DNA of 22,110 nucleotides, from the NCBI GenBank assembly GCA_965195285.1, contig CBDAFS010000013.1, forward strand, positions 1-22,110. Direction: 5' to 3'. The notes beneath the pieces are model-generated. The model worked only from the letters and a program-made list of their open reading frames with translations. It ran no database searches and was not told the origin of the DNA. Position 1 is the stretch's first letter. Every line of letters starts with the position of its first letter. Of this stretch, positions 8,846 through 20,950 are shown one piece after another. This DNA is from an uncultured Aminicenantes bacterium (GTDB lineage: Bacteria > Acidobacteriota > Aminicenantia > UBA2199). A program made the position numbers and the translations under genes.

Positions 8846-9796
8846 TTACTTTTTTTTTAATTCATAATACAGATAATTTTGAGGTATTTTTCCAGTTCCA
8901 ATCATTTTTTTTTCGAGTTGAACCAAACGACCGGTTTCTGATTTACCTACTTCTGTTTGATGCCAGTTGTTTATATTCAAACGGCGAGGTTTCAAATATG
9001 AGGTGAGAAAAAATGGAAACAACAAGGTTCCGCCAAAAGATATGACCTCAACCAAGCCAAAATTGTCCCGTAACATTTGATCTAAATCACCTGATCGAAT
9101 ACATTCTGAAGGATCATCGGAACGCCTCCACATTTTTTTAAAATCTTTCTGATTAACAGGTTTTCGACAGGCAATTAATTGATCTGGTAGAGAATCAAGC
9201 CATTCATTAATGATATCAATAATCGATTGTTCAAATCCAAATTCCGAAAGGCCGACATATTCATCAACATACATAATACCATCACGGGATAACTGATTAT
9301 TCAGTTGAGGGAAAATGTATTCGAAATTTTTAAAGTGGTGAAAAGCACCAACATCAATAATGGTATTAAACAAACCCAGGGAAGCGTAATCATAAGAATT
9401 GGCATCAGATTTAACAAATGAATAAGGAATATCAATATTCAATTCTTTCATGTTGTGGTAAAACCGTTCTCCTTCCCCTTTTGAAATATTCAGGTAAACA
9501 ATTTCGGTTGTATCTCTTTTGGTTAGAAAAGCTTCTGCTGCCATTCCATAACCATCTCCAAAGCAAAGAACTCTCCCAAAAGGAGTTGCTCTATTCTGTA
9601 TTTTTTTTGTATACCAGCTAAGAGATGCATCCCCGGTAATTTCTTTCTGAATAATTTTCCTAATAATTTTATTATTCCACCAGTATTTAATTGAAGCAGC
9701 AGTTTCTGTTTCATCCCAGAATTTAGCTGCCTTTTTTTTATCACTTAACAACAATAAAATTTTTTTTAAAATTCGAATCAAATAATATCTGACCAA
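8846..9796 (-). CDS. Class I SAM-dependent methyltransferase, substrate unknown
   Basis: RVLCFGDGYG (variant motif I), SDAN, AFHHF, GIMYVDEYVG and DPSECIRS motifs; TTG start after a TAAGGAG SD; AT-rich. Confidence 0.72.
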   Translation of the reverse strand: MVRYYLIRILKKILLLLSDKKKAAKFWDETETAASIKYWWNNKIIRKIIQKEITGDASLSWYTKKIQNRATPFGRVLCFGDGYGMAAEAFLTKRDTTEIVYLNISKGEGERFYHNMKELNIDIPYSFVKSDANSYDYASLGLFNTIIDVGAFHHFKNFEYIFPQLNNQLSRDGIMYVDEYVGLSEFGFEQSIIDIINEWLDSLPDQLIACRKPVNQKDFKKMWRRSDDPSECIRSGDLDQMLRDNFGLVEVISFGGTLLFPFFLTSYLKPRRLNINNWHQTEVGKSETGRLVQLEKKMIGTGKIPQNYLYYELKKK

Positions 9797-11116: not shown

Positions 11117-14100
11117 TTAACCGAAGTAATCGATACCGGATTCGAATAATTTCTGATCTTTGTTTCCGGGAATATTGATGGCAACATGATTGCCTTTCCT
11201 CTCCGAATGAGCCATCTTCCCCAGAATCCGGCCATCCGGACTGGTAATACCCTCTACTGCATTCATCGAGCCATTGGGATTGAATTCAAAATCCATGGAG
11301 GGATCACCTTGCATATCAACATATTGAGTGGTGATTTGACCGGCTGATAATAATTTTTTAAATTTTTCCTGCTTCGCCACGAATCTTCCCTCGCCATGAG
11401 ATACCGGTATTACATGTATATCGCCCGACCGGGAATGCAAAAACCAGGGAGAAAGAACTGAAACCACTTTGGTTCTGATCATGCGAGACACATGACGCCC
11501 AATTGTATTGAAAGTCAGGGTAGGGCTGGATTCATCCAATTCTCTGATCTCACCGTAGATAACCAAGCCCAATTTAATCAATGCCTGAAAACCATTGCAG
11601 ATTCCCAGCATGAGTCCGTCTCTTTTGTGTAAGAATTTCATTACCGCATTTTGAATCTCCGGATTTCTGAATACGGCGGTAATAAACTTGCCCGAACCAT
11701 CGGGTTCATCACCGGAACTGAATCCCCCTGGAATAACAATAATCTGAGAATTTTCAATCTTTTTCTTCATGCTATTCAAAGATTGAATAATGTCAGAGGG
11801 TTTCAGGTTTCTGAAAACAACCGTCTCGACAATACCACCCGCTGTTTCAAAGGCTTTCTGGGTATCATATTCACAATTGGTCCCGGGAAAAACGGTTATT
11901 AAAATTCTTGGCTTGGCAATTTTCACTTTGGGCTTTTTCTCATTTCGCTCAGTATAAATGAACGACTCGCATGTGTTTTCTTTTGGTGTTAACAGGGTTG
12001 GGAATACCCTTTCCAAGGGTTTTTTCCAATTTAACATCAATTCTTCAATCCCAATCTCTGTTCCATTAACGGACAGAACAGGTTTGTCCATGGTATGACC
12101 CAGAATTTGGTATTGAACTCCTTTGAACATGCTGTTTAAATTTACATTTTTTTCAACCTCTAAAACAATAGAACCAAAATCTGGAGACAACAAATCACTG
12201 ATTTTCATGGGATTTTTCAAAAATAATCCTATTTTGTTGCCCAAACACATCTTGCTTAATGCTGCGGCCAGTCCTCCGCCCCGTACCGTATGAGCCGAGA
12301 GAATTTTCTTTTTTTGTATATTCTCGGTAACAGCAGAAAACATTGGCTTCAACACATCGAATCTGGGGCACTCATTCAGATCTCTTTCCGCTTTAAGGTA
12401 GACAATCAGGGTGTTGCTCTGCTTTAATTCAGGGGAAATAACTGTTTCTAAATCCACGACATCTACTGCAAATGCAATTAGGGTGGGGGGAACATGTAAA
12501 TCTTCAAAAGACCCTGACATACTGTCCTTCCCTCCGATTGAAGCCAACTCAAATTCGGTTAAAGCATAATATGCCCCCAGTAATGCGGCAAAGGGTTTTC
12601 CCCACTTACTGGGATTGTCACCAAGTTTTTCAAAATACTCCTGGAGAGAAAATCGGATGGATCGATAATCTCCTCCGGTTGCAACCACTTTGGACACTGC
12701 TTCGATAATAGAATATATTCCTGTATGAAAAGGACTCCAGACTGCCAGTTCGGGATTGAAACCAAATGTCATAACGGTTCCGGTTAAAGTATCTGATGTC
12801 AATACCGGGATCTTGGCAACCATTGCTTCAATCGGAGTCAATTGATATTGACCTCCGAAAGGAAGCAATACAGTGCCCGCTCCAATAGTGCTGTCAAATC
12901 TTTCTACCAGCCCAATTTGCCCACAATTATTAAGATCTCTCAAATTTTCCAACCAGATGGTTTTCAAATCATCAGGTCGATTCGTGATTTTTTCAACGGA
13001 TTCGATAAAAAAATTGTCTCTGCTCTCTGGTGCAGAGACAACCACATCAATATGCTTTCTTACTCCATTGGTATCTATAAATTTCCTGCTGATATCAACG
13101 ATGGCCTCATCTCTCCAATACATTCTCAAACGATCAGAGGAAGTTACGCGGGCAACTTCTGTTGCCTCGAGATTTTCCGCTTCAGAATACCGCTTGAATC
13201 GATTTACATCTCCGGGAGAGATAACAACTGCCATTCTCTCCTGGGATTCTGATAGGGCCAGTTCCGTCCCATCAAGCCCCTCATATTTTTTGGGGATTTT
13301 ATCCAGATTTATATCCAACCCATCAGCCAGTTCTCCGATTGCTACCGAGACCCCGCCCGCTCCAAAATCATTGCTCCTCTTGATCAAACGGGTGACTTCA
13401 GGATTCCGGAAAAGCCGTTGAAGTTTTCGCTCCTCTGGCGGATTCCCCTTTTGAACTTCCGCCCCTGCCGTGAAAATCGATTTTTCCGTATGTTTCTTGG
13501 ACGATCCGGTAGCTCCGCCAATTCCATCTCTACCGGTTCTTCCACCCACCAGAATAACCACATCCCCAGGGATGGGCTCCTCTCTCTTTATATTTTTTCT
13601 TGAAACAGCACCGACAACAGCACCTACTTCCATTCGTTTGCTGACATACTTATCATGGTAAATTTCCGTAACCAGACCAGTGGCCAAACCGATTTGATTC
13701 CCATAAGAACTGTATCCCAAGGCAGCCTCGGTGGTAATCTTTTTCTGGGGCAATTTGCCTGGAAGTGTTTCCGAAATACTGGCCCTGGGATCTCCAGAAC
13801 CACTAACCCGCATGGCCTGGTATACAAATGCCCTCCCGGAAAGGGGATCCCGAATGGCACCGCCCAGACAGGTAGCCGCGCCCCCGAATGGTTCAATCTC
13901 AGTGGGATGGTTGTGGGTTTCGTTTTTAAACAAAATTAACCATTCTTCTTCCTTATTATTTCGCTTGATTGTTCTGATGATACTGCAGGCATTTATTTCA
14001 CCGGACATCTCCATATCCTGGAGTTTTCCTTTCTCTCGCAGTTCCTTCATACTCAAGGTTGCCAAATTCATCAAACTCAGGTCAACATCCTGACATTCAG

Positions 14101-14908
14101 CAGATTTTTTTTTATATTGAAGCCACTCAGCTGTTTTAATATATTTTTCCAGGGTTTCTTTTATGGGTTTTGCATACGGACCCTCAACTATTTTAACATT
14201 ATGAATACGGGTATTAAAGGTAGTATGTCGGCAGTGATCCGACCAATATGTATCCAGCATTTTGATCTCGGTTATGGTGGGATCCCTCTTTTCCTGCTCC
14301 CGAAAATACTGTTGACAAAACGAAATATCCTCGAGACCCATGGCCAATCCCCGGGAATCAATAAATTTTTGAAGTTCACCCTGAGAAAAACCCCTGAAAC
14401 CATATATGGATTTTATATCTTCCGGAACCAGGAACTGCATCCTCAAATCCTCAGGCTTATCCAGCTTTGCCTCTCTGGAATCCACAGGATTAATGAGATA
14501 TTTTTTGATTCTATCCATATCCTCGGAGGATATTTTACCCTTTAAAATAATGAATCTGGCTGTTACCACCAGAGGTTTATTTTGTCGACTAATAATCTGA
14601 ATACATTGGGCTGCTGAGTCCGCTCTCTGATCATACTGGCCGGGTAAATATTCAATAGCAACGATTTTTTCATTTCCTTGTAGCTGAATTCTTTCCTCAT
14701 AAATATTATCCAGTGGCGGTTCGGAAAGAATTGAATTTTTCACCCGGTTAAATTCTGGCTGTGAAATTTCAGAAATATCATACCGATTCAGCAGGCGAAG
14801 GTTCTCCAAATTTTCAATGCCAAGGTTAAATTTTAGATCCTGAAAAAGACTCTGTGCTTCTATATCAAAACCTTTCTTTTTTTCAACAAATATTCTTTTT
14901 ATGCTCAC
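11117..14908 (-). CDS. purL: Phosphoribosylformylglycinamidine synthase, large fused form (synthetase + glutaminase)
   Basis: YWSDHCRHTTF, KNETHNHPTEIEPFGGAAT, DFGAGG and SESQERM motifs; C-terminal GICNGFQ, SHGEG, AHSER; 1263 aa. Confidence 0.98.
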   Translation of the reverse strand: MSIKRIFVEKKKGFDIEAQSLFQDLKFNLGIENLENLRLLNRYDISEISQPEFNRVKNSILSEPPLDNIYEERIQLQGNEKIVAIEYLPGQYDQRADSAAQCIQIISRQNKPLVVTARFIILKGKISSEDMDRIKKYLINPVDSREAKLDKPEDLRMQFLVPEDIKSIYGFRGFSQGELQKFIDSRGLAMGLEDISFCQQYFREQEKRDPTITEIKMLDTYWSDHCRHTTFNTRIHNVKIVEGPYAKPIKETLEKYIKTAEWLQYKKKSAECQDVDLSLMNLATLSMKELREKGKLQDMEMSGEINACSIIRTIKRNNKEEEWLILFKNETHNHPTEIEPFGGAATCLGGAIRDPLSGRAFVYQAMRVSGSGDPRASISETLPGKLPQKKITTEAALGYSSYGNQIGLATGLVTEIYHDKYVSKRMEVGAVVGAVSRKNIKREEPIPGDVVILVGGRTGRDGIGGATGSSKKHTEKSIFTAGAEVQKGNPPEERKLQRLFRNPEVTRLIKRSNDFGAGGVSVAIGELADGLDINLDKIPKKYEGLDGTELALSESQERMAVVISPGDVNRFKRYSEAENLEATEVARVTSSDRLRMYWRDEAIVDISRKFIDTNGVRKHIDVVVSAPESRDNFFIESVEKITNRPDDLKTIWLENLRDLNNCGQIGLVERFDSTIGAGTVLLPFGGQYQLTPIEAMVAKIPVLTSDTLTGTVMTFGFNPELAVWSPFHTGIYSIIEAVSKVVATGGDYRSIRFSLQEYFEKLGDNPSKWGKPFAALLGAYYALTEFELASIGGKDSMSGSFEDLHVPPTLIAFAVDVVDLETVISPELKQSNTLIVYLKAERDLNECPRFDVLKPMFSAVTENIQKKKILSAHTVRGGGLAAALSKMCLGNKIGLFLKNPMKISDLLSPDFGSIVLEVEKNVNLNSMFKGVQYQILGHTMDKPVLSVNGTEIGIEELMLNWKKPLERVFPTLLTPKENTCESFIYTERNEKKPKVKIAKPRILITVFPGTNCEYDTQKAFETAGGIVETVVFRNLKPSDIIQSLNSMKKKIENSQIIVIPGGFSSGDEPDGSGKFITAVFRNPEIQNAVMKFLHKRDGLMLGICNGFQALIKLGLVIYGEIRELDESSPTLTFNTIGRHVSRMIRTKVVSVLSPWFLHSRSGDIHVIPVSHGEGRFVAKQEKFKKLLSAGQITTQYVDMQGDPSMDFEFNPNGSMNAVEGITSPDGRILGKMAHSERKGNHVAINIPGNKDQKLFESGIDYFG

Positions 14909-14927
14909 GGTTAGATATTACCTGATC

Positions 14928-15812
14928 TTATAGGGGTTTTAAGGCCTTGCGGATTTCATGAATATGTTCGGGTGTTGTTCCACAGCATCCCCCGATAATT
15001 GAGACACCCGCTTGGACTAAATCTTTACTCTTCTCTGCCATAAAGCCGGGGGTTTCCGGGTAATAGGGAAGATTATTTCTCAGCTCGGGGAGCCCGGCAT
15101 TGGACTGAATGATGAGTGGAACCGGGGTCAATTGATTAAATTCCCGGGCTATCAAAATCATCTTCTCGATTCCGTTCCCACAATTTGAGCCAACAATATC
15201 CGCTCCTGCCGCCGTTAATTGCTGCACTGCTGTGGGAATATCCACTCCCATAATAGTAAAAAACCCCCTGGGAGTGGAATCAAATGTCATGGTGGCCATA
15301 ACCGGAATATCCGGCGCAATAGATTTGGCGGCTTTTACTGCCAGAACAGCCTCCTGAACATCGGTCATGGTCTCAACACAAACAACATCGATTCCATCAT
15401 CTATCAATGCGTTAAGCTGGCGGTAAAAATTATCATACATTACTTCGGATTCGATATCCCCATAGGGTTTTAACAGTTTTCCACTGGGGCCACAGGAAGC
15501 CGAAATAAAAACACTTCCATCTATCGCATTTATTACGGCTTTCAGGGCATTCCTATTGATCTCTTCTGTTTTTTCCTCCAGGGAATAATCGGCCAATTTC
15601 AAGGGTGATGCCCCAAATGTATTGGTCTGTAAAATCTCAGCTCCGGCATTATAATAAAGGCGAGCAATTTCTTCAAGAATTTCCGGATGTGATAAATTAA
15701 ACGTTTCCGGAGGCATTCCGGCCGGAAGCCCCCTTTGCATCAACAGAGAGCCCATGGCCCCATCGGCAATAAAAATTTCCCCTCTATTCAACCGTTTTAA
15801 AATCGATTCCAT
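14928..15812 (-). CDS. Homocysteine S-methyltransferase family protein (stand-alone MetH Hcy-binding domain)
   Basis: DGAMGS, TNTF, ETM, GSNCG, NAGLP and GGCCGTTPEHI motifs, including the three Zn-ligand cysteines. Confidence 0.93.
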   Translation of the reverse strand: MESILKRLNRGEIFIADGAMGSLLMQRGLPAGMPPETFNLSHPEILEEIARLYYNAGAEILQTNTFGASPLKLADYSLEEKTEEINRNALKAVINAIDGSVFISASCGPSGKLLKPYGDIESEVMYDNFYRQLNALIDDGIDVVCVETMTDVQEAVLAVKAAKSIAPDIPVMATMTFDSTPRGFFTIMGVDIPTAVQQLTAAGADIVGSNCGNGIEKMILIAREFNQLTPVPLIIQSNAGLPELRNNLPYYPETPGFMAEKSKDLVQAGVSIIGGCCGTTPEHIHEIRKALKPL

Positions 15813-15813
15813 G

Positions 15814-16452
15814 CTAATTATGACCGGTCATGGCCTTGATGCGTTCCACTGCATGACCGACATCATATCCATACTCATCAGCCCCGATTTCATCGGCAAA
15901 GGCCTTGGATACCGGAGCCCCTCCGATAATGGTTTTTATTTGACCTGATAATTCTTCTCTTTTGATAATATCCACAACCTGTTTCATCACAGCCATGGTG
16001 GTAGTTAAAAGTGCGGACATACCAATAATCCTGGCATTATTGCCTTTAGCCGTATCCACAAATTTTTCCGGGGCTACATCATTTCCCAGGTCAATGACTT
16101 CATAACCTGCCCCTTTAAGCATAATTCCCACCAGGTTTTTCCCGATATCATGCAAATCACCCTGAACCGATCCGATAACAACCTTTCCCCGGGAGGGAAT
16201 ACCCTCTTCAATGAGCATAGGCTTCAGCAAGTCCATTCCTGCATACATGGCCTTGGCGGCTAACAGAACATCCGGCAAAAAAATTTCATGGATTCTAAAC
16301 TGATCCCCGATAATATTCATTCCGGCAATTAATCCATCATTGAGAATTTCCAGGGGAGATTTGTGCTGATCCAGGGCGCTTTGGGTAAGTTCGGCTACCT
16401 TGGTATCATCTCCCATCTGCAGATGCTGTGAGATTTGATTTAATATTTCCAT
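15814..16452 (-). CDS. Cobalamin-binding corrinoid protein (MtbC/MttC-like)
   Basis: Cap domain EIFLPDVL; GDLHDIGKNLV (DxHxxG); MSALLTTT and IIGGAPV motifs. Confidence 0.95.
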   Translation of the reverse strand: MEILNQISQHLQMGDDTKVAELTQSALDQHKSPLEILNDGLIAGMNIIGDQFRIHEIFLPDVLLAAKAMYAGMDLLKPMLIEEGIPSRGKVVIGSVQGDLHDIGKNLVGIMLKGAGYEVIDLGNDVAPEKFVDTAKGNNARIIGMSALLTTTMAVMKQVVDIIKREELSGQIKTIIGGAPVSKAFADEIGADEYGYDVGHAVERIKAMTGHN

Positions 16453-17179
16453 GTTTTATCTCCTTGTCTTCCTGAATTATTGGTTTTATCCTCTGCAGAC
16501 AGGATTTGTGTGAACAAAGTCTGCAAAATGAAAAATTGTTTTTGAAAATATGAATATCTCTCTTCCCGGCCACCAGGACACCGGTTATTGATTTTAAAGG
16601 GACCATCAAAAACTGCTGATTTAGGGTGATACCGATCTCCTCTGGTTCAAGGTATTCAAAGAGTCTTTTTTGGGCGCTGAGGTGCCACCCACAGTATCCT
16701 GGGCTGTATATCAGAACGGTTGTAGATGGCTCGCATTGATTTTTTTCCATTAAAAATTGGTAAAACTCCTGCTCCCCGATGCGGGTGGCCATATCGGCTC
16801 CCTCAGAGGCAACAGAATCCAGCATTGATCCCAGTGCAAAATCATTATTATTAAACAACCGGGTAATCTCTTGACTGATTGTTTCTCCCAGGGTGAAGGC
16901 TAAGATTGCCAGGTGTTGAGACTGAGGATAAATGATCCCCAATGGAGTCTTTTTCTCATTCATCCCCATTCCCGAATAAACTTGACTGAAATCCTTAATT
17001 GAAATCGTTTCGATTACCCCTTTGGGTTCAGCCAGTTCCCGGTACAGAAGCAGTGCTTTGGAATAAAGCTCGACTATTTTTTTCGATGGTTTTACACCTC
17101 TGGCGATCCCCTGGGATAAGAACACACCCTCCTGGGACGGTTCGATTTTTTCAATCCGGGGAATTAAAAACTGTCTCAT
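16406..17179 (-). CDS. Vitamin B12-dependent methionine synthase activation-domain-like protein
   Basis: AFTLG, LDSVASE, YSPGYCGW, IGITL..FLMVPLKSITG and C-terminal CRLCSHKSC, typical of short stand-alone reactivation domains. Confidence 0.85.
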   Translation of the reverse strand: MRQFLIPRIEKIEPSQEGVFLSQGIARGVKPSKKIVELYSKALLLYRELAEPKGVIETISIKDFSQVYSGMGMNEKKTPLGIIYPQSQHLAILAFTLGETISQEITRLFNNNDFALGSMLDSVASEGADMATRIGEQEFYQFLMEKNQCEPSTTVLIYSPGYCGWHLSAQKRLFEYLEPEEIGITLNQQFLMVPLKSITGVLVAGKRDIHIFKNNFSFCRLCSHKSCLQRIKPIIQEDKEIKHGNIKSNLTASADGR

Positions 17180-17185
17180 GAAGGT

Positions 17186-18643
17186 TTATTGAGGAAGATT
17201 TTTCATACCATATCTTCGGGCTTCTTCTTCCATACGGCGGGTCAGTTCAGATTTCATACCCTCAGGTAAGGGTGAGGGTTGATAGGAGTCTATTAACCGT
17301 GTCACCTCCTGAGTAGCACGCTCTTTAAGCGTTAAGGCTCCTTCTTCTCTCCATCGGGAAAGATTGGCTCGATCAATCACCTTGCCCGGGAAATAATGCT
17401 CCTCCTTCAGATAACGACGGGTATGAGTTGAAATGAGCAGATGTTTTTCCTGCAGTAATTCCTTAAAAATAGGAAGAGCCGGGAAGTCTTCCTTGGGTTC
17501 AATCCCCCGAATCATTCGAAGAACCATTCCGCATATCTCATTATCAAGAACCAGTTTTTCAAGGCTCTGGCAATTCTCGAAATCCAGCATACCAGGACCA
17601 GAAATATTGTTGATCCCGCTCAGGGCTGCCAAAGTGGCTCCCATGGATGATTCTAATCCTGCCTGGGCATCCAGATTTTTGGCATCACTCAATGAGATAT
17701 AGGCCTGAGTCGGGATTCCCAGGTACTTACCGATTTCATTGTAGGCACAATCAATCATCTGGGTTTCCACCGCCCCCATTGGGGTGGTTTCATATCTGAT
17801 ATCAAAAAAAGCAGGAGAACCACCATACAGTAACGGAGCCCCGGGATTTGAAAGCTGACTTATAACAATTCCACTGAGGGTTTCTGCAGTATGCTCTACC
17901 AGAGTTCCAACCAGGGTAACCGGTGCCATAAAACCGGAAAGTGGCATGGAAATAAACTCAACCGGGATGCCCCACTGGGCGCAATCCACCACATTTTGTG
18001 AAGTTACATCACTCCATTTCAGAGGAGAAGTGGGGCAACAGGAAAAAACCGTCAGGGGTTTTTCTCTCAATGCATTTTCACTTCCCCTTACGATTAACTG
18101 TAAATCCCTCATCACATTAAAGGCATCTACTGTAAACGTACCGGTAACCACAGGTTTTTTACAATATAACAGGCTGAGGTAAAGGCGATAACTGTCTGAT
18201 ATCTTTTCCACAACATCAGAGGGAATAAATGCCGTACTCTGGGAAGTAATATGTTCCAGACCTTCCACCAGCTTGGCATACCGGATATAATCATGAGTAG
18301 TGGGTTTACGGATTTGATCGGTCTGGCCATCCAATATATGCAGGGCTGCCGAACCGGGAGTGAAATACACATTGTAATCTGAGAAATCATGGGTTTCATT
18401 TCCCAAAACATCATACAATTTAAAGGCAGAGGGAACGGATTTCAGAGCATCGTCAATAATTTCATTGGTATATATTACCTGAAAATTTTCCATATCCACG
18501 ATTGCACCATGATCGGATAAAAGAGCCAAAATCTGTTTGTTATGAATCCTGGTACCGAGTTTACACAGGATATCTCTGGATTCCGAAATGATTCTCTCAA
18601 TTAGATCATTGGATAAGAATTTCAAAGTCGGTCTTGCAGACAT
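17186..18643 (-). CDS. Trimethylamine methyltransferase (MttB) superfamily protein, non-pyrrolysine
   Basis: PTSPLKW, APVTLVGTL, PGAPLLYG, LSDAKNLDAQAGLES and GPGMLDFE motifs; uninterrupted 485 aa; CAGGAGG SD. Confidence 0.93.
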   Translation of the reverse strand: MSARPTLKFLSNDLIERIISESRDILCKLGTRIHNKQILALLSDHGAIVDMENFQVIYTNEIIDDALKSVPSAFKLYDVLGNETHDFSDYNVYFTPGSAALHILDGQTDQIRKPTTHDYIRYAKLVEGLEHITSQSTAFIPSDVVEKISDSYRLYLSLLYCKKPVVTGTFTVDAFNVMRDLQLIVRGSENALREKPLTVFSCCPTSPLKWSDVTSQNVVDCAQWGIPVEFISMPLSGFMAPVTLVGTLVEHTAETLSGIVISQLSNPGAPLLYGGSPAFFDIRYETTPMGAVETQMIDCAYNEIGKYLGIPTQAYISLSDAKNLDAQAGLESSMGATLAALSGINNISGPGMLDFENCQSLEKLVLDNEICGMVLRMIRGIEPKEDFPALPIFKELLQEKHLLISTHTRRYLKEEHYFPGKVIDRANLSRWREEGALTLKERATQEVTRLIDSYQPSPLPEGMKSELTRRMEEEARRYGMKNLPQ

Positions 18644-18677
18644 TATGGTTCCTCCTGTTATCGGGGCTGATAAAAAA

Positions 18678-18706
18678 ATTATAGATAATCAGGCTATTAA
18701 AGTCAA
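18678..18706 (-). promoter_or_regulatory. sigma70 promoter heading the mttB-...-purL-rarA gene run
   Basis: TTGACT-17 bp-TATAAT on the minus strand, about 35 bp upstream of the ATG. Confidence 0.8.
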
Positions 18707-18747
18707 TTATCGGAATATGTCTCGGGGCCAGCTTGACAGGCGACTCT

Positions 18748-19563
18748 TCAGCCCAGTGCCACATCGAGGATCATCATCACCGTAAAACCTATCATGGTTG
18801 CCATGGTTACTATATCAATATTTGCATCGTTCCGCTGAGATTCCGGAATCAGTTCTTCCACCACTACAAAAATCATTGCTCCGGCAGCAAAGCAAAGTGC
18901 ATAGGGCAGGATGCTCTGTATATTAAGAACAAATACTGCTCCGAGCACCCCGGCAATGGGTTCAACCAGACCGGATGCCTGCCCCATAATGAAGCTCTTC
19001 GTCCGCCCCATTCCTTCTCTCCTCAATGGTAACGATACCGCAGCTCCTTCCGGGAAATTCTGGAGACCGATTCCGATTGCCAACGCAATGGCGCCGCCAA
19101 GCGTAGCAGAAGGAAGATGGGCTGCCACAGCCCCGAAAGCAACGCCGACAGCAAGACCTTCGGGGATATTATGCAGTGTGATTGCAAGTACCAGCAGCGT
19201 GCTACGCTGCCAGGATGTCTTTATTCCCTCACTTTGCTCTATAGCCAATCTTGAATGAAGATGCGGCAGTAAACGATCAGCCAGTCTCATGAAAAGCCCA
19301 CCACCCATGAAGCCAATTACGGCTGTCAGCCATGGGATGTGGCCCATCTGTTGGGCCATTTCTATGCCAGGAGCTAGCAGAGACCAGAAGCTTGCAGCAA
19401 TCATGACACCGGCAGCGAAACCGAGCATAGAATCCATGAGTTTTGGTTTTACCGTCTTTGTAAAGAAAACGAGTGCCGCTCCTGCCGCAGTCACGCCCCA
19501 GGTAAAGAGCGTAGCCATAAGCGCCTGCATGATGGGACTATATTGTTGAAAAAAGTCGATCAT
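18748..19563 (-). CDS. ZIP family (ZupT/GufA-like) divalent metal transporter
   Basis: GFAAGVMIAASFWSLL, HNIPEGLAVG, QNFPEG and ELIPE motifs; likely ATG at 19563 after AAAGGA (the ORF-track TTG lies in the attC R' box). Confidence 0.95.
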   Translation of the reverse strand: MIDFFQQYSPIMQALMATLFTWGVTAAGAALVFFTKTVKPKLMDSMLGFAAGVMIAASFWSLLAPGIEMAQQMGHIPWLTAVIGFMGGGLFMRLADRLLPHLHSRLAIEQSEGIKTSWQRSTLLVLAITLHNIPEGLAVGVAFGAVAAHLPSATLGGAIALAIGIGLQNFPEGAAVSLPLRREGMGRTKSFIMGQASGLVEPIAGVLGAVFVLNIQSILPYALCFAAGAMIFVVVEELIPESQRNDANIDIVTMATMIGFTVMMILDVALG

Positions 19564-19575
19564 CTTATTTCCTTT

Positions 19576-19645
19576 CGCCAACGATTGAGTTCACCTGCAT
19601 TTTGGATCGAAGCGGAAAAATGTCAGGTGCAACGATTTGTTAGGC
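19576..19645 (-). mobile_element. attC: attC site (canonical)
   Basis: Minus strand: GCCTAAC AAATC GTTGCAC CTGACATTTT...AAAATGCAG GTGAAC TCAATC GTTGGCG; 5/6-bp spacers and an extrahelical base in L''. Confidence 0.92.
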
Positions 19646-19831: not shown

Positions 19832-20950
19832 TTATCTCATTGCTTTGATAATGCGCTTATTTACATTCTGCATATAGATTTCGATAATGATGGAAATTAA
19901 TAAAAGTGCTATAATCACGAAAAAAACTATTGGATCTTGTTTTATCGTTTGAATGCTAAAAATAACCAGAACAGTGAAATTTGATAAAAAAGCTAAACCG
20001 ACTATGATTTTTGAAGCATTAGTCTCTAAGGTCAAACTTTTTAGGTGCCCCAGATGTACAACCGAGTAGACAATAAGGTAGACGATACTTCCAAGGATAG
20101 CGATTCTAGAGAGATCAAGAAAGTTTGCAACAAGCAGGATAAGAATCGATGTTGTTAACAGGCCAGCAGTGCCAGCATGCCATAACTTACGTCCTGTGAA
20201 GTTGGGTAGCTCGCCATCTTTAGCCAGAAGTAGCGTCATGTTTGCCGTGCTATATAGATTGGCATTAATACTCGATGCAGCAGACATTAGTGCAGTAAGG
20301 GAAATAATGGTAAAGCCTATCTGTCCAAAAATTGGTTTTGCAGCTTCTGCCATTGCATAATCTTTTGCTCGAATGATATCAGACAATTCGAGATTACCAA
20401 ATACTGCAAATGAGGCTCCAACATAGATAAATATAACAATCCCGATAGCACCGTAGATAGCTCGAGGCAGGGTATGCGATGGGTTGGGCATATCTTCAAC
20501 CGTATTGGTAATAACACCAAAACCATGATAAGCAAGTAGACAAATCGCCACTGTACTTAAAATGCTGACAATAGAAACATTGCTACCTTGCATGGAAAGG
20601 AGTTCTGGTTTGATTAACAGCGAACCACCAATAATGAATATCGCTAAGATGAATATTTTTGAAATAACAATAAATTTCTCTACTTTGCCGACCACATCTG
20701 CACCAACAAAATTGATAAATGTTAGTATTATAATTATGACTGAAGCGAAAATATTGATCAGAAGTCCTGAAGGGTGAGATGTAAATAAAGTTACTGCATA
20801 GCTGCCAAAAGCCTTGGCAACCATAGCCATAACCACGGTAATCGAAAAGTAAAGAAGGATTGAAAGAACACCAGTGATGTAGCCACTACCGTACCCATGA
20901 ACCAAATATTCAACAATTCCGCCTGAAGAAGGGTACTTAACCCCAAGAAT
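19832..20950 (-). pseudogene. APC family amino-acid permease, 5'-truncated
   Basis: Frame is open back to 20950 (LGVKYPSSGGIVEYL, an internal APC loop) but is preceded by TAA TAA with no start or first TM helices; AYHGFGVI..EDMPNP motif. Confidence 0.8.

Follow-up and report, generated by a model that had tools for sequence, protein, structure and literature searches.

A four-gene corrinoid cassette of an uncultured Aminicenantes bacterium that probably makes methionine without a pterin module

Can a set of proteins that resembles the cobalamin-dependent methionine synthase MetH, yet lacks its pterin module, still make methionine, and where would the methyl group then come from? This question is raised by four genes on contig CBDAFS010000013.1 of an uncultured Aminicenantes bacterium (assembly GCA_965195285.1). 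We analyzed positions 1 to 22,110 of this contig and refer to this whole stretch of 22,110 nucleotides (nt) as the window. According to the list of open reading frames (ORFs), the cassette occupies positions 14928-18643 of the minus strand and lies inside a long run of minus-strand genes. We conclude that the four genes probably constitute a self-contained cobalamin-dependent methyl-transfer cassette which would make methionine without a pterin module. Its members, with protein lengths in amino acids (aa), are:

17186-18643, minus strand: gene 1, ORF with PF06253, pyrrolysine-free methyltransferase of the MttB superfamily, 485 aa (P0001)
16406-17179, minus strand: gene 2, ORF with PF02965, stand-alone MetH-type activation (reactivation) protein, TM0269-like, 257 aa (P0002)
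15814-16452, minus strand: gene 3, ORF with PF02607 and PF02310, corrinoid (B12-binding) protein with cap and Rossmann domains, 212 aa (P0003)
14928-15812, minus strand: gene 4, ORF with PF02574, stand-alone zinc-type homocysteine S-methyltransferase, 294 aa (P0004)

In the mechanism that we propose, the MttB-family enzyme would demethylate a methylated amine and pass the methyl group to the corrinoid protein in its Co(I) state. From there, the stand-alone zinc homocysteine S-methyltransferase would move this group to homocysteine, yielding methionine and Co(I). After oxidation to Co(II), the TM0269-like protein would restore the cofactor by reductive methylation, probably with S-adenosylmethionine (SAM). 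What the present study establishes are the domain identities, the conserved gene order and a genome census.

A preliminary description, made from the DNA letters alone, had claimed four tightly packed genes, had assigned them to these four protein types and had noticed that the pterin module is missing. The ORF coordinates bear out the packing, with 6 nt between genes 1 and 2, a 47-nt overlap of genes 2 and 3 and 1 nt between genes 3 and 4. The four assignments hold by Pfam, NCBIfam-type models, PDB comparison, profile search and Foldseek, and a Pfam scan of the four cassette proteins gave no match to the pterin module PF00809. Thus the cassette is no canonical MetH, as no PF00809 module is joined to the homocysteine and B12 modules. 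Likewise, PF01717 matched neither the four proteins nor anything in the host genome, which excludes the Core-MetE / Mes family.

The acceptor side of the cassette is readily recognized. P0004 matches PF02574 with 220.7 bits; among more specific models, the N-terminal half of YitJ scores 261 bits, the Bhmt/MtgE-type model PRK07534 204 and metH 160. The protein can be aligned over its full length to the homocysteine domain of Thermotoga maritima MetH (1q7m, E 3e-48), and C211, C276 and C277 fall on the cysteines of the motifs G-x-N-C and GGCCGT of that structure, which we take to be the zinc ligands. Gene 4 is therefore proposed to encode the methyltransferase from methyl-corrinoid to homocysteine (MT2). 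P0003 in turn carries PF02607 (80.5 bits) and PF02310 (90.7 bits) and shows the D-x-H-x-x-G motif as GDLHDIG. Judged by bit scores, it fits methylamine-type corrinoid models (MtgC, about 202 bits; pyl_corrinoid, 199.8) better than metH (154.5), with all three scores under the cut-offs of their models.

Do the four genes belong together? A synteny survey, which the preliminary description had suggested as a check, found that they do. Scanning species-representative genomes with P0001 gave 80 related loci, in which partner genes were located by tblastn of the four proteins. All four genes occur in the same order in 56 of these 80 loci, or in 56 of the 69 that offer at least 2900 nt of downstream sequence; in the other 11 the contig ends within that distance, and nine of them still show the next gene or genes. 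Three of the 80 loci (L032, L034, L074) have genes 3 and 4 and lack gene 2, one keeps a gene-2 fragment only, one the corrinoid gene only, and eight, with MttB identities of 59-69%, have no partner within 6 kb. No RamA-type activase was found in the three loci without gene 2, where the next genes encode an ABC-F ATPase and unrelated proteins. Across the cassette loci, MttB identity ranges from 57 to 90% under more than 15 phylum-level labels, including Aminicenantes, WOR-3, Stahlbacteria, Zixibacteria, Planctomycetota groups, Ignavibacteria, Fermentibacteria, Cloacimonadota and Elusimicrobiota. Relatives of P0001 at 72-90% identity stand under many candidate-phylum names, the closest one (90%) being labelled Aminicenantes. 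Within the phylum of the host the distribution is patchy: among 121 sampled genomes, 32 matched at E <=1e-120, and 15 of these, the host included, reached at least 62% identity.

Furthermore, all flanking ORFs of 81 loci were clustered. No other neighbour family was present in more than eight loci, and those found in five to eight come mostly from one WOR-3 lineage (peptidyl-prolyl isomerase, UPF0047, extracytoplasmic function sigma factor and others) and are seemingly unrelated to the cassette. A conserved transporter, pterin gene or activase next to the cassette was not found among these ORFs. Since no further neighbour is conserved, the four genes form a self-contained module, and their arrangement is far beyond chance.

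Some individual loci depart from this pattern. In four of the 80 loci (L040:9770-10939, minus strand; L033; L041; L099) the gene directly after the cassette encodes a DUF362 protein that has two 4Fe-4S ferredoxin domains. Such a protein could supply electrons for repair of the cofactor, an association too rare to say more. One closed WOR-3 genome, which has a short MetH, retains only the MttB gene and about 100 gene-2 codons (L058:7422-9338, plus strand), and these codons are in frame with a PriA helicase ORF, pointing to a decayed cassette. Three genomes of the host phylum (G027, G054, G061) have open frames of 782-817 aa with MttB-like matches at 43-47% identity; these frames may be fusions with another module.

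If the cassette makes methionine without folate, genomes might be expected in which it stands alone. We searched the 56 full-cassette genomes for PF00809, PF02219 (methylenetetrahydrofolate reductase, MTHFR) and PF01717, with the following outcome:

MetH-type pterin domain present: 27 genomes, MTHFR in 26, PF01717 in 0
No MetH-type pterin domain: 29 genomes, MTHFR in 8, PF01717 in 8

The sole MetH-bearing genome without MTHFR is a single-cell assembly. MetH, PF01717 and MTHFR were all not found in 18 of the 56 genomes, and in about one third of the genomes that bear it the cassette is the only recognisable methionine synthase. Three of these 18 are single-contig WOR-3 records designated as chromosomes (G002, G004, G007), in which the sole pterin match is of the FolP type. 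Each has a single MttB gene, and the presence of S-adenosylhomocysteine hydrolase together with MetY/MetB-type enzymes indicates that these three closed genomes make homocysteine. Of the evidence added here, the census speaks most strongly for folate independence and for a true contribution of the cassette to methionine supply, and it lends comparative weight to the folate independence that the preliminary description had inferred.

All three closed genomes hold a second corrinoid protein. That of G002 (L105:1967-6904, minus strand) is encoded with two URO-D-type (MtaA-like) methyltransferases and two HGD-D-like proteins, and by its gene content this cluster is a separate corrinoid system, unrelated to the cassette.

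Which compound donates the methyl group? P0001, the only PF06253 protein of the host genome, matches this family (MTTB) with 242.2 bits (cut-off 25), its residues 4-469 covering profile positions 28-490 of 500. Against TIGR02369, the equivalog model of MttB, it reaches 366.7 bits, which is under the cut-off of 525, and its PDB matches to MtgB (9yce/2qne, E 1e-52) and MttB (7xcl, E 2e-49) are about equal. Leu318, encoded by TTG and thus one base away from TAG, aligns with the pyrrolysine of MttB (X of 7xcl), and the ORF contains no in-frame stop. Consequently, TTG in place of UAG and the score below the TIGR02369 cut-off rule out that P0001 is the trimethylamine methyltransferase MttB proper. 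An Rfam match begins at this very codon:

17593-17692, minus strand: PYLIS_3 match inside gene 1, 47.7 bits (gathering score 38), beginning exactly at the TTG of Leu318

This match most likely reflects coding similarity to true mttB genes, rather than a working recoding element.

The related enzyme MtgB is reported to hold glycine betaine by Y97, R312, H348 and F356, as seen by mutagenesis and in a bound structure, and the exchanges R312L and H348E are reported to abolish its activity (Picking et al., 2026, PMC13080624). In our alignment these four residues correspond to S98, Q313, S348 and E356 of P0001, with a chain numbering that is offset by 2 consistently at all four. The replacements are fixed in 64-65 of 65 cassette-type sequences and in all eight stand-alone relatives of a 73-sequence clade alignment. 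With all four betaine-binding residues replaced, P0001 is not the glycine betaine methyltransferase MtgB. Moreover, BCCT carriers were detected in none of the 18 genomes in which no other methionine synthase was found, and OpuAC-type binding proteins in one of them. The replaced pocket and the scarcity of these transport proteins disfavour betaine, choline and carnitine, and on the same grounds glycine betaine was rejected as the leading donor. By its residues, the pocket more likely serves a small methylamine or another cationic compound and probably not glycine betaine. We propose that gene 1 encodes the methyl donor to corrinoid methyltransferase (MT1). Thus the route from a methylamine or quaternary amine via cobalamin to homocysteine, as drawn in the preliminary description, persists as the best reading, with betaine, choline and carnitine from its list of donors disfavoured.

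How would the cofactor be kept active? The match of P0002 to PF02965 (Met_synt_B12) is weak, 25.8 bits at a cut-off of 25, and the best solved match of the single sequence is TM0269 of T. maritima (1j6r, E 5e-6). A family profile was built from P0002 and 48 of its 57 orthologues, after three over-long ORF calls and six short ones had been dropped. It finds 1j6r with E 2.6e-12 over nearly the full length and activation domains of MetH with E 0.002-0.06 (8g3h, 0.002; 1msk, 0.022). The AlphaFold (AF2) model of P0002 has a pLDDT of 93.1, and in a Foldseek search of this model 1j6r ranks at the top (TM 0.80); the only other structures returned are activation domains of MetH (E about 1e-8). Four cysteines, C163 in S-P-G-Y-C-G-W and C219, C222 and C227 in C-x2-C-x4-C, are invariant in 49 of 49 gene-2 sequences. 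TM0269 and the second TM0269-like protein of the host, P0124, have G-D instead of C-G after P-G-Y, and both end before the cysteine tail. The four cysteines of the gene-2 family may hold a metal or an Fe-S centre with a part in reactivation. RxxxGY is the motif by which the activation domain of MetH binds SAM. In the gene-2 family S-P-G-Y is nearly invariant. Four residues ahead of the Gly, P0002 has Ile, at a position that varies within the family and that is Arg in TM0269 and P0124. RACE/RamA (PF14574) was not found in the host genome, which is 94.9% complete, and this, together with the TM0269-like nature of gene 2, fits the SAM-type rather than RACE-type repair that had been expected from the window.

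The host itself does not depend on the cassette in an obvious manner. It encodes a MetH of 792 aa with homocysteine, pterin and B12 modules and no activation domain, the cysteine-free P0124 on contig C30, a YitJ-type fusion of homocysteine methyltransferase and MTHFR (756 bits), an MmuM-type enzyme and FolP. PF00809 matches lie on contigs C62, C20 and C39. The one on C39 is a stand-alone MeTr-like protein of 278 aa with 153.8 bits against PRK07535, below the cut-off of 259. Cap-type corrinoid modules number only two, P0003 and the one inside MetH. Thus a search of the host for pterin, metH, metE and RACE genes, as envisaged earlier, gave a divided answer: PF01717 and PF14574 were not found, and a short MetH, a YitJ-type fusion and a MeTr-like protein are present. 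The C39 gene (MeTr/AcsE-like; L023:6982-7818, minus strand) lies between a gene for a D-2-hydroxyacid dehydrogenase and genes for phosphatidylserine decarboxylase / CDP-alcohol phosphatidyltransferase, an odd neighbourhood for a corrinoid-linked enzyme, with no corrinoid genes beside it.

Is such an arrangement new? The preliminary description knew of no characterised example, and we found no biochemical test either; however, both the cluster and the hypothesis, reached independently, were printed in 2022. Williams et al. (2022, PMC9324843) report a cluster in Ca. Electryoneota and "diverse bacteria" and hypothesize a novel corrinoid-dependent methionine synthesis, leaving the donor open. It comprises the same four protein types, i.e., a non-pyrrolysine MttB/MtgB homologue, a homocysteine methyltransferase, a corrinoid protein and an activation protein, and a normal MetH is encoded there too; this likeness is one of composition and description. 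In contrast to the present cassette, the legend of their Fig. S3 shows an extra gene annotated without function, and MetH in their metagenome-assembled genomes is given as full-length (1115 and 1223 aa), whereas the host MetH has 792 aa and lacks the activation domain. The cassette in this window thus adds one more clean example to a published hypothesis, rather than being a discovery. Neither the MetH, MetE and MTHFR census nor the transporter check was found in print in the full-text literature that we searched.

Other systems share parts of this design. The MtgBCDE proteins of Ruegeria pomeroyi and the split MetH of Phaeobacter inhibens are likewise described as a B12 hub that joins demethylation of methylated amines with methionine synthesis; genetic evidence from R. 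pomeroyi unites four proteins in this hub, namely an MttB-family enzyme, its corrinoid partner, a pterin protein and a Bhmt-like homocysteine methyltransferase (Mausz et al., 2025, PMC12478193). MtgBCDE needs the pterin protein MtgD, has scattered genes, is repaired by RamA and a DUF1638 protein, uses glycine betaine and belongs to aerobes (PMC12478193). The cassette, in contrast, is a tight operon without a pterin gene inside, with TM0269-type repair, no PF14574 found in its host and the betaine residues replaced. Like MtgB-MtgC-MtgA of Desulfitobacterium hafniense, it pairs an enzyme of this superfamily fold, with Leu where pyrrolysine would stand, with a corrinoid protein resembling MtgC, while the acceptor in that system is given as tetrahydrofolate (THF), via MtgA, and not homocysteine (PMC13080624).

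Compared with MetH, including its split Thermotoga form (MetH plus TM0269; 1q7m, 1j6r), the homocysteine, B12 and activation modules are homologous, and as in Thermotoga the activation protein is free-standing. Unlike MetH, the cassette has no pterin module, each of its modules is a separate protein and the corrinoid protein is of the methylamine type by score; its activation protein differs from TM0269 (1j6r) and P0124 by the four invariant cysteines. Core-MetE and MesA-D are described to make methionine without methyl-folate as well, probably from a methyl-corrinoid protein, but with PF01717 catalysts, whereas the catalyst of the cassette belongs to PF02574 (Price et al., 2021, PMC7857596; Deobald et al., 2020, PMC7005905). 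The text on folate-independent synthases by Price et al. (2021, PMC7857596) makes no mention of MttB, trimethylamine, PF06253 or PF02574.

How firmly does the proposed role stand? The Ruegeria hub suggests another way to read the locus. The main flux would then run from a methylated amine over the corrinoid protein to THF, by a pterin methyltransferase encoded elsewhere, and serve catabolism or the one-carbon pool, while the homocysteine branch would be a side outlet or would itself be fed from methyl-THF through the same corrinoid protein. The genetics of R. pomeroyi, where one corrinoid protein reportedly serves both glycine betaine demethylation and methionine synthesis (Mausz et al., 2025, PMC12478193), provides a precedent. 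The host offers the C39 MeTr-like protein, with P0003 as its only free cap-type corrinoid partner, so that methyl exchange with folate is possible, and weak stand-alone pterin matches (ORFs of 270-292 aa; four above and three below the cut-off) occur in a few other cassette genomes. However, a pterin gene is never part of the cassette, the C39 gene sits among phospholipid/serine-type genes, and most cassette genomes have no stand-alone pterin protein. The 18 of 56 genomes without MTHFR, MetH and MetE, among them the three closed chromosomes with nothing but a FolP-type pterin match, are hard to reconcile with a hub, and we regard this explanation as unlikely. Even less room is left for a folate-dependent split MetH, in which the TIM barrel of the MttB family would have been recruited for methyl-THF or methyl-pterin as a non-orthologous stand-in for the pterin module. 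Gene 1 does fill the slot of this module in a MetH-like set, and its pocket is unlike that of every characterised relative compared. Yet MTHFR was detected in only eight of the 29 MetH-less cassette genomes and in none of the three closed ones, and such an enzyme would be redundant in the 27 of 56 genomes that keep the cassette beside a normal MetH. As, in addition, the characterised members of the MttB superfamily cited in PMC12478193 and PMC13080624 all use methylated amines, we consider it quite improbable. Finally, P0004 might methylate another thiol or a selenol, or the system might serve to remove an unwanted methylated amine; homocysteine would then resemble the true acceptor only by coincidence. 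PF02574 covers varied donors, as the matches to MmuM, BHMT and YitJ illustrate. Against this, P0004 resembles the MetH homocysteine domains over its whole length with the Cys triad kept, a MetH-type activation partner travels with it, and 18 genomes have no other synthase, including the three closed ones that make homocysteine; a role outside methionine synthesis therefore appears very improbable.

Several points weigh against a folate-free methionine synthase nonetheless. A biochemical or genetic test of any cassette member was not found in the full-text literature, which leaves subscription journals outside its coverage. Of the 69 loci with enough flank, 13 have only part of the cassette or an MttB gene by itself. 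Most census genomes are metagenome-assembled, so that absences may be gaps (three of 42 lack even FolP); they are related to each other and thus no independent samples, and PF02219 may miss non-canonical MTHFRs. Genomes without another synthase might simply import methionine. The use of SAM is uncertain, as the Arg of RxxxGY is unconserved in the gene-2 family. In the present host, MetH, the YitJ-type fusion, the MmuM-like enzyme and P0124 make the cassette auxiliary and in principle dispensable. Taking both sides together, we still hold the self-contained, pterin-free route from methylated amine to methionine to be the probable one. A farther-reaching combination, namely that the cassette is the sole synthase in about one third of its carriers, closed WOR-3 genomes among them, that no methyl-THF can be made there and that all methyl groups of methionine and SAM stem from an environmental methylated amine, is conceivable but doubtful. 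As part of this combination, and given the lost betaine residues and the lack of BCCT carriers in the 18 genomes, the donor may be a small methylamine, e.g., trimethylamine, handled without pyrrolysine. An Fe-S or metal centre of its own may, in addition, allow the cysteine-tailed activation protein to dispense with flavodoxin or an ATP-driven activase when it repairs the B12 protein.

Is the cassette expressed as a unit? The following features flank it:

18678-18706, minus strand: promoter-like TTGACT (18706-18701), 17-nt spacer and TATAAT (18683-18678), 11 of 12 consensus matches
18651-18656, minus strand: Shine-Dalgarno sequence AGGAGG, 7 nt 5' of the ATG of gene 1, read in the sequence
11117-14908, minus strand: purL, 1263 aa, TIGR01857 1825 bits

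The gap 5' of gene 1 measures 104 nt and holds both the promoter-like site and AGGAGG. Sites with at least 11 of 12 matches number seven in the window, compared to 0.68 expected from 200 Markov simulations, and about 0.0016 chance sites are expected in this gap on the correct strand. The near-consensus promoter noted earlier is thereby confirmed as a sequence feature; by consensus match only, TTGACT-17-TATAAT is a candidate promoter. No Rfam family reached its gathering score in the window except PYLIS_3 inside gene 1, and thus no SAM or B12 riboswitch precedes the operon. At the other end, purL starts 19 nt past gene 4. Since no terminator-like site was found in 14909-14927, the transcription unit may extend beyond gene 4, with possible read-through from the putative cassette promoter into purL. 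Neighbour clustering across the related loci places purL outside the conserved module. DNA contigs of a near-identical strain keep the junction between cassette and purL.

Such near-identical contigs, from one other study (runs X2 and X3), match 13500-18748 with 19 differences. They diverge at 18748, exactly at the stop of a ZupT-like gene, so that a rearrangement has its breakpoint immediately 5' of the cassette leader; cassette and leader are thus shared and the upstream context differs. Two RNA libraries of that study contain short exact-match contigs inside genes 1 to 3 (18294-18583, 18003-18155 and 16406-16584). Because DNA can contaminate RNA libraries, these give a weak hint of cassette transcription, showing neither a transcript nor its ends, and cassette stretches without RNA-library cover carry no meaning. 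The runs that match strongly are marine sediment and cold-seep metagenomes; habitat was not used as evidence.

Elsewhere in the window, a piece of about 63 nt at 19580-19645, just 5' of the start codon of the ZupT-like gene, is found again on other contigs, where the sequence differs on both of its sides. It reaches a contig depth of 158 in one RNA library, has no Rfam match at gathering score and may be a short repeat or regulatory element. An APC-family permease ORF (19832-20905, minus strand, 357 aa) covers only positions 78-418 of 427 of the AA_permease_2 profile; its N-terminal part is seemingly missing, which may be due to truncation of the gene or to a wrongly called start. A 316-aa ORF (8846-9796, minus strand) between RarA-like and TrmJ-like genes gave no Pfam or NCBIfam match.

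What would the cassette mean for the organisms that carry it? If the proposed mechanism is true, uncultured sediment phyla (WOR-3, Zixibacteria, Aminicenantes, Planctomycetota, Ignavibacteria) would tie methylated amines directly to methionine and SAM. As this link needs B12 and bypasses folate, it would bring about an unrecognised nutritional dependence and a competition with methylotrophic methanogens for methylamines. Among the known folate-independent methionine synthases the cassette would represent a fifth route, based on PF02574, and for the MttB superfamily it would imply a new substrate class or a pyrrolysine-free mechanism. Should the cassette indeed be the sole synthase in part of its carriers, these cells would be unable to make their own methyl groups for methionine and SAM.

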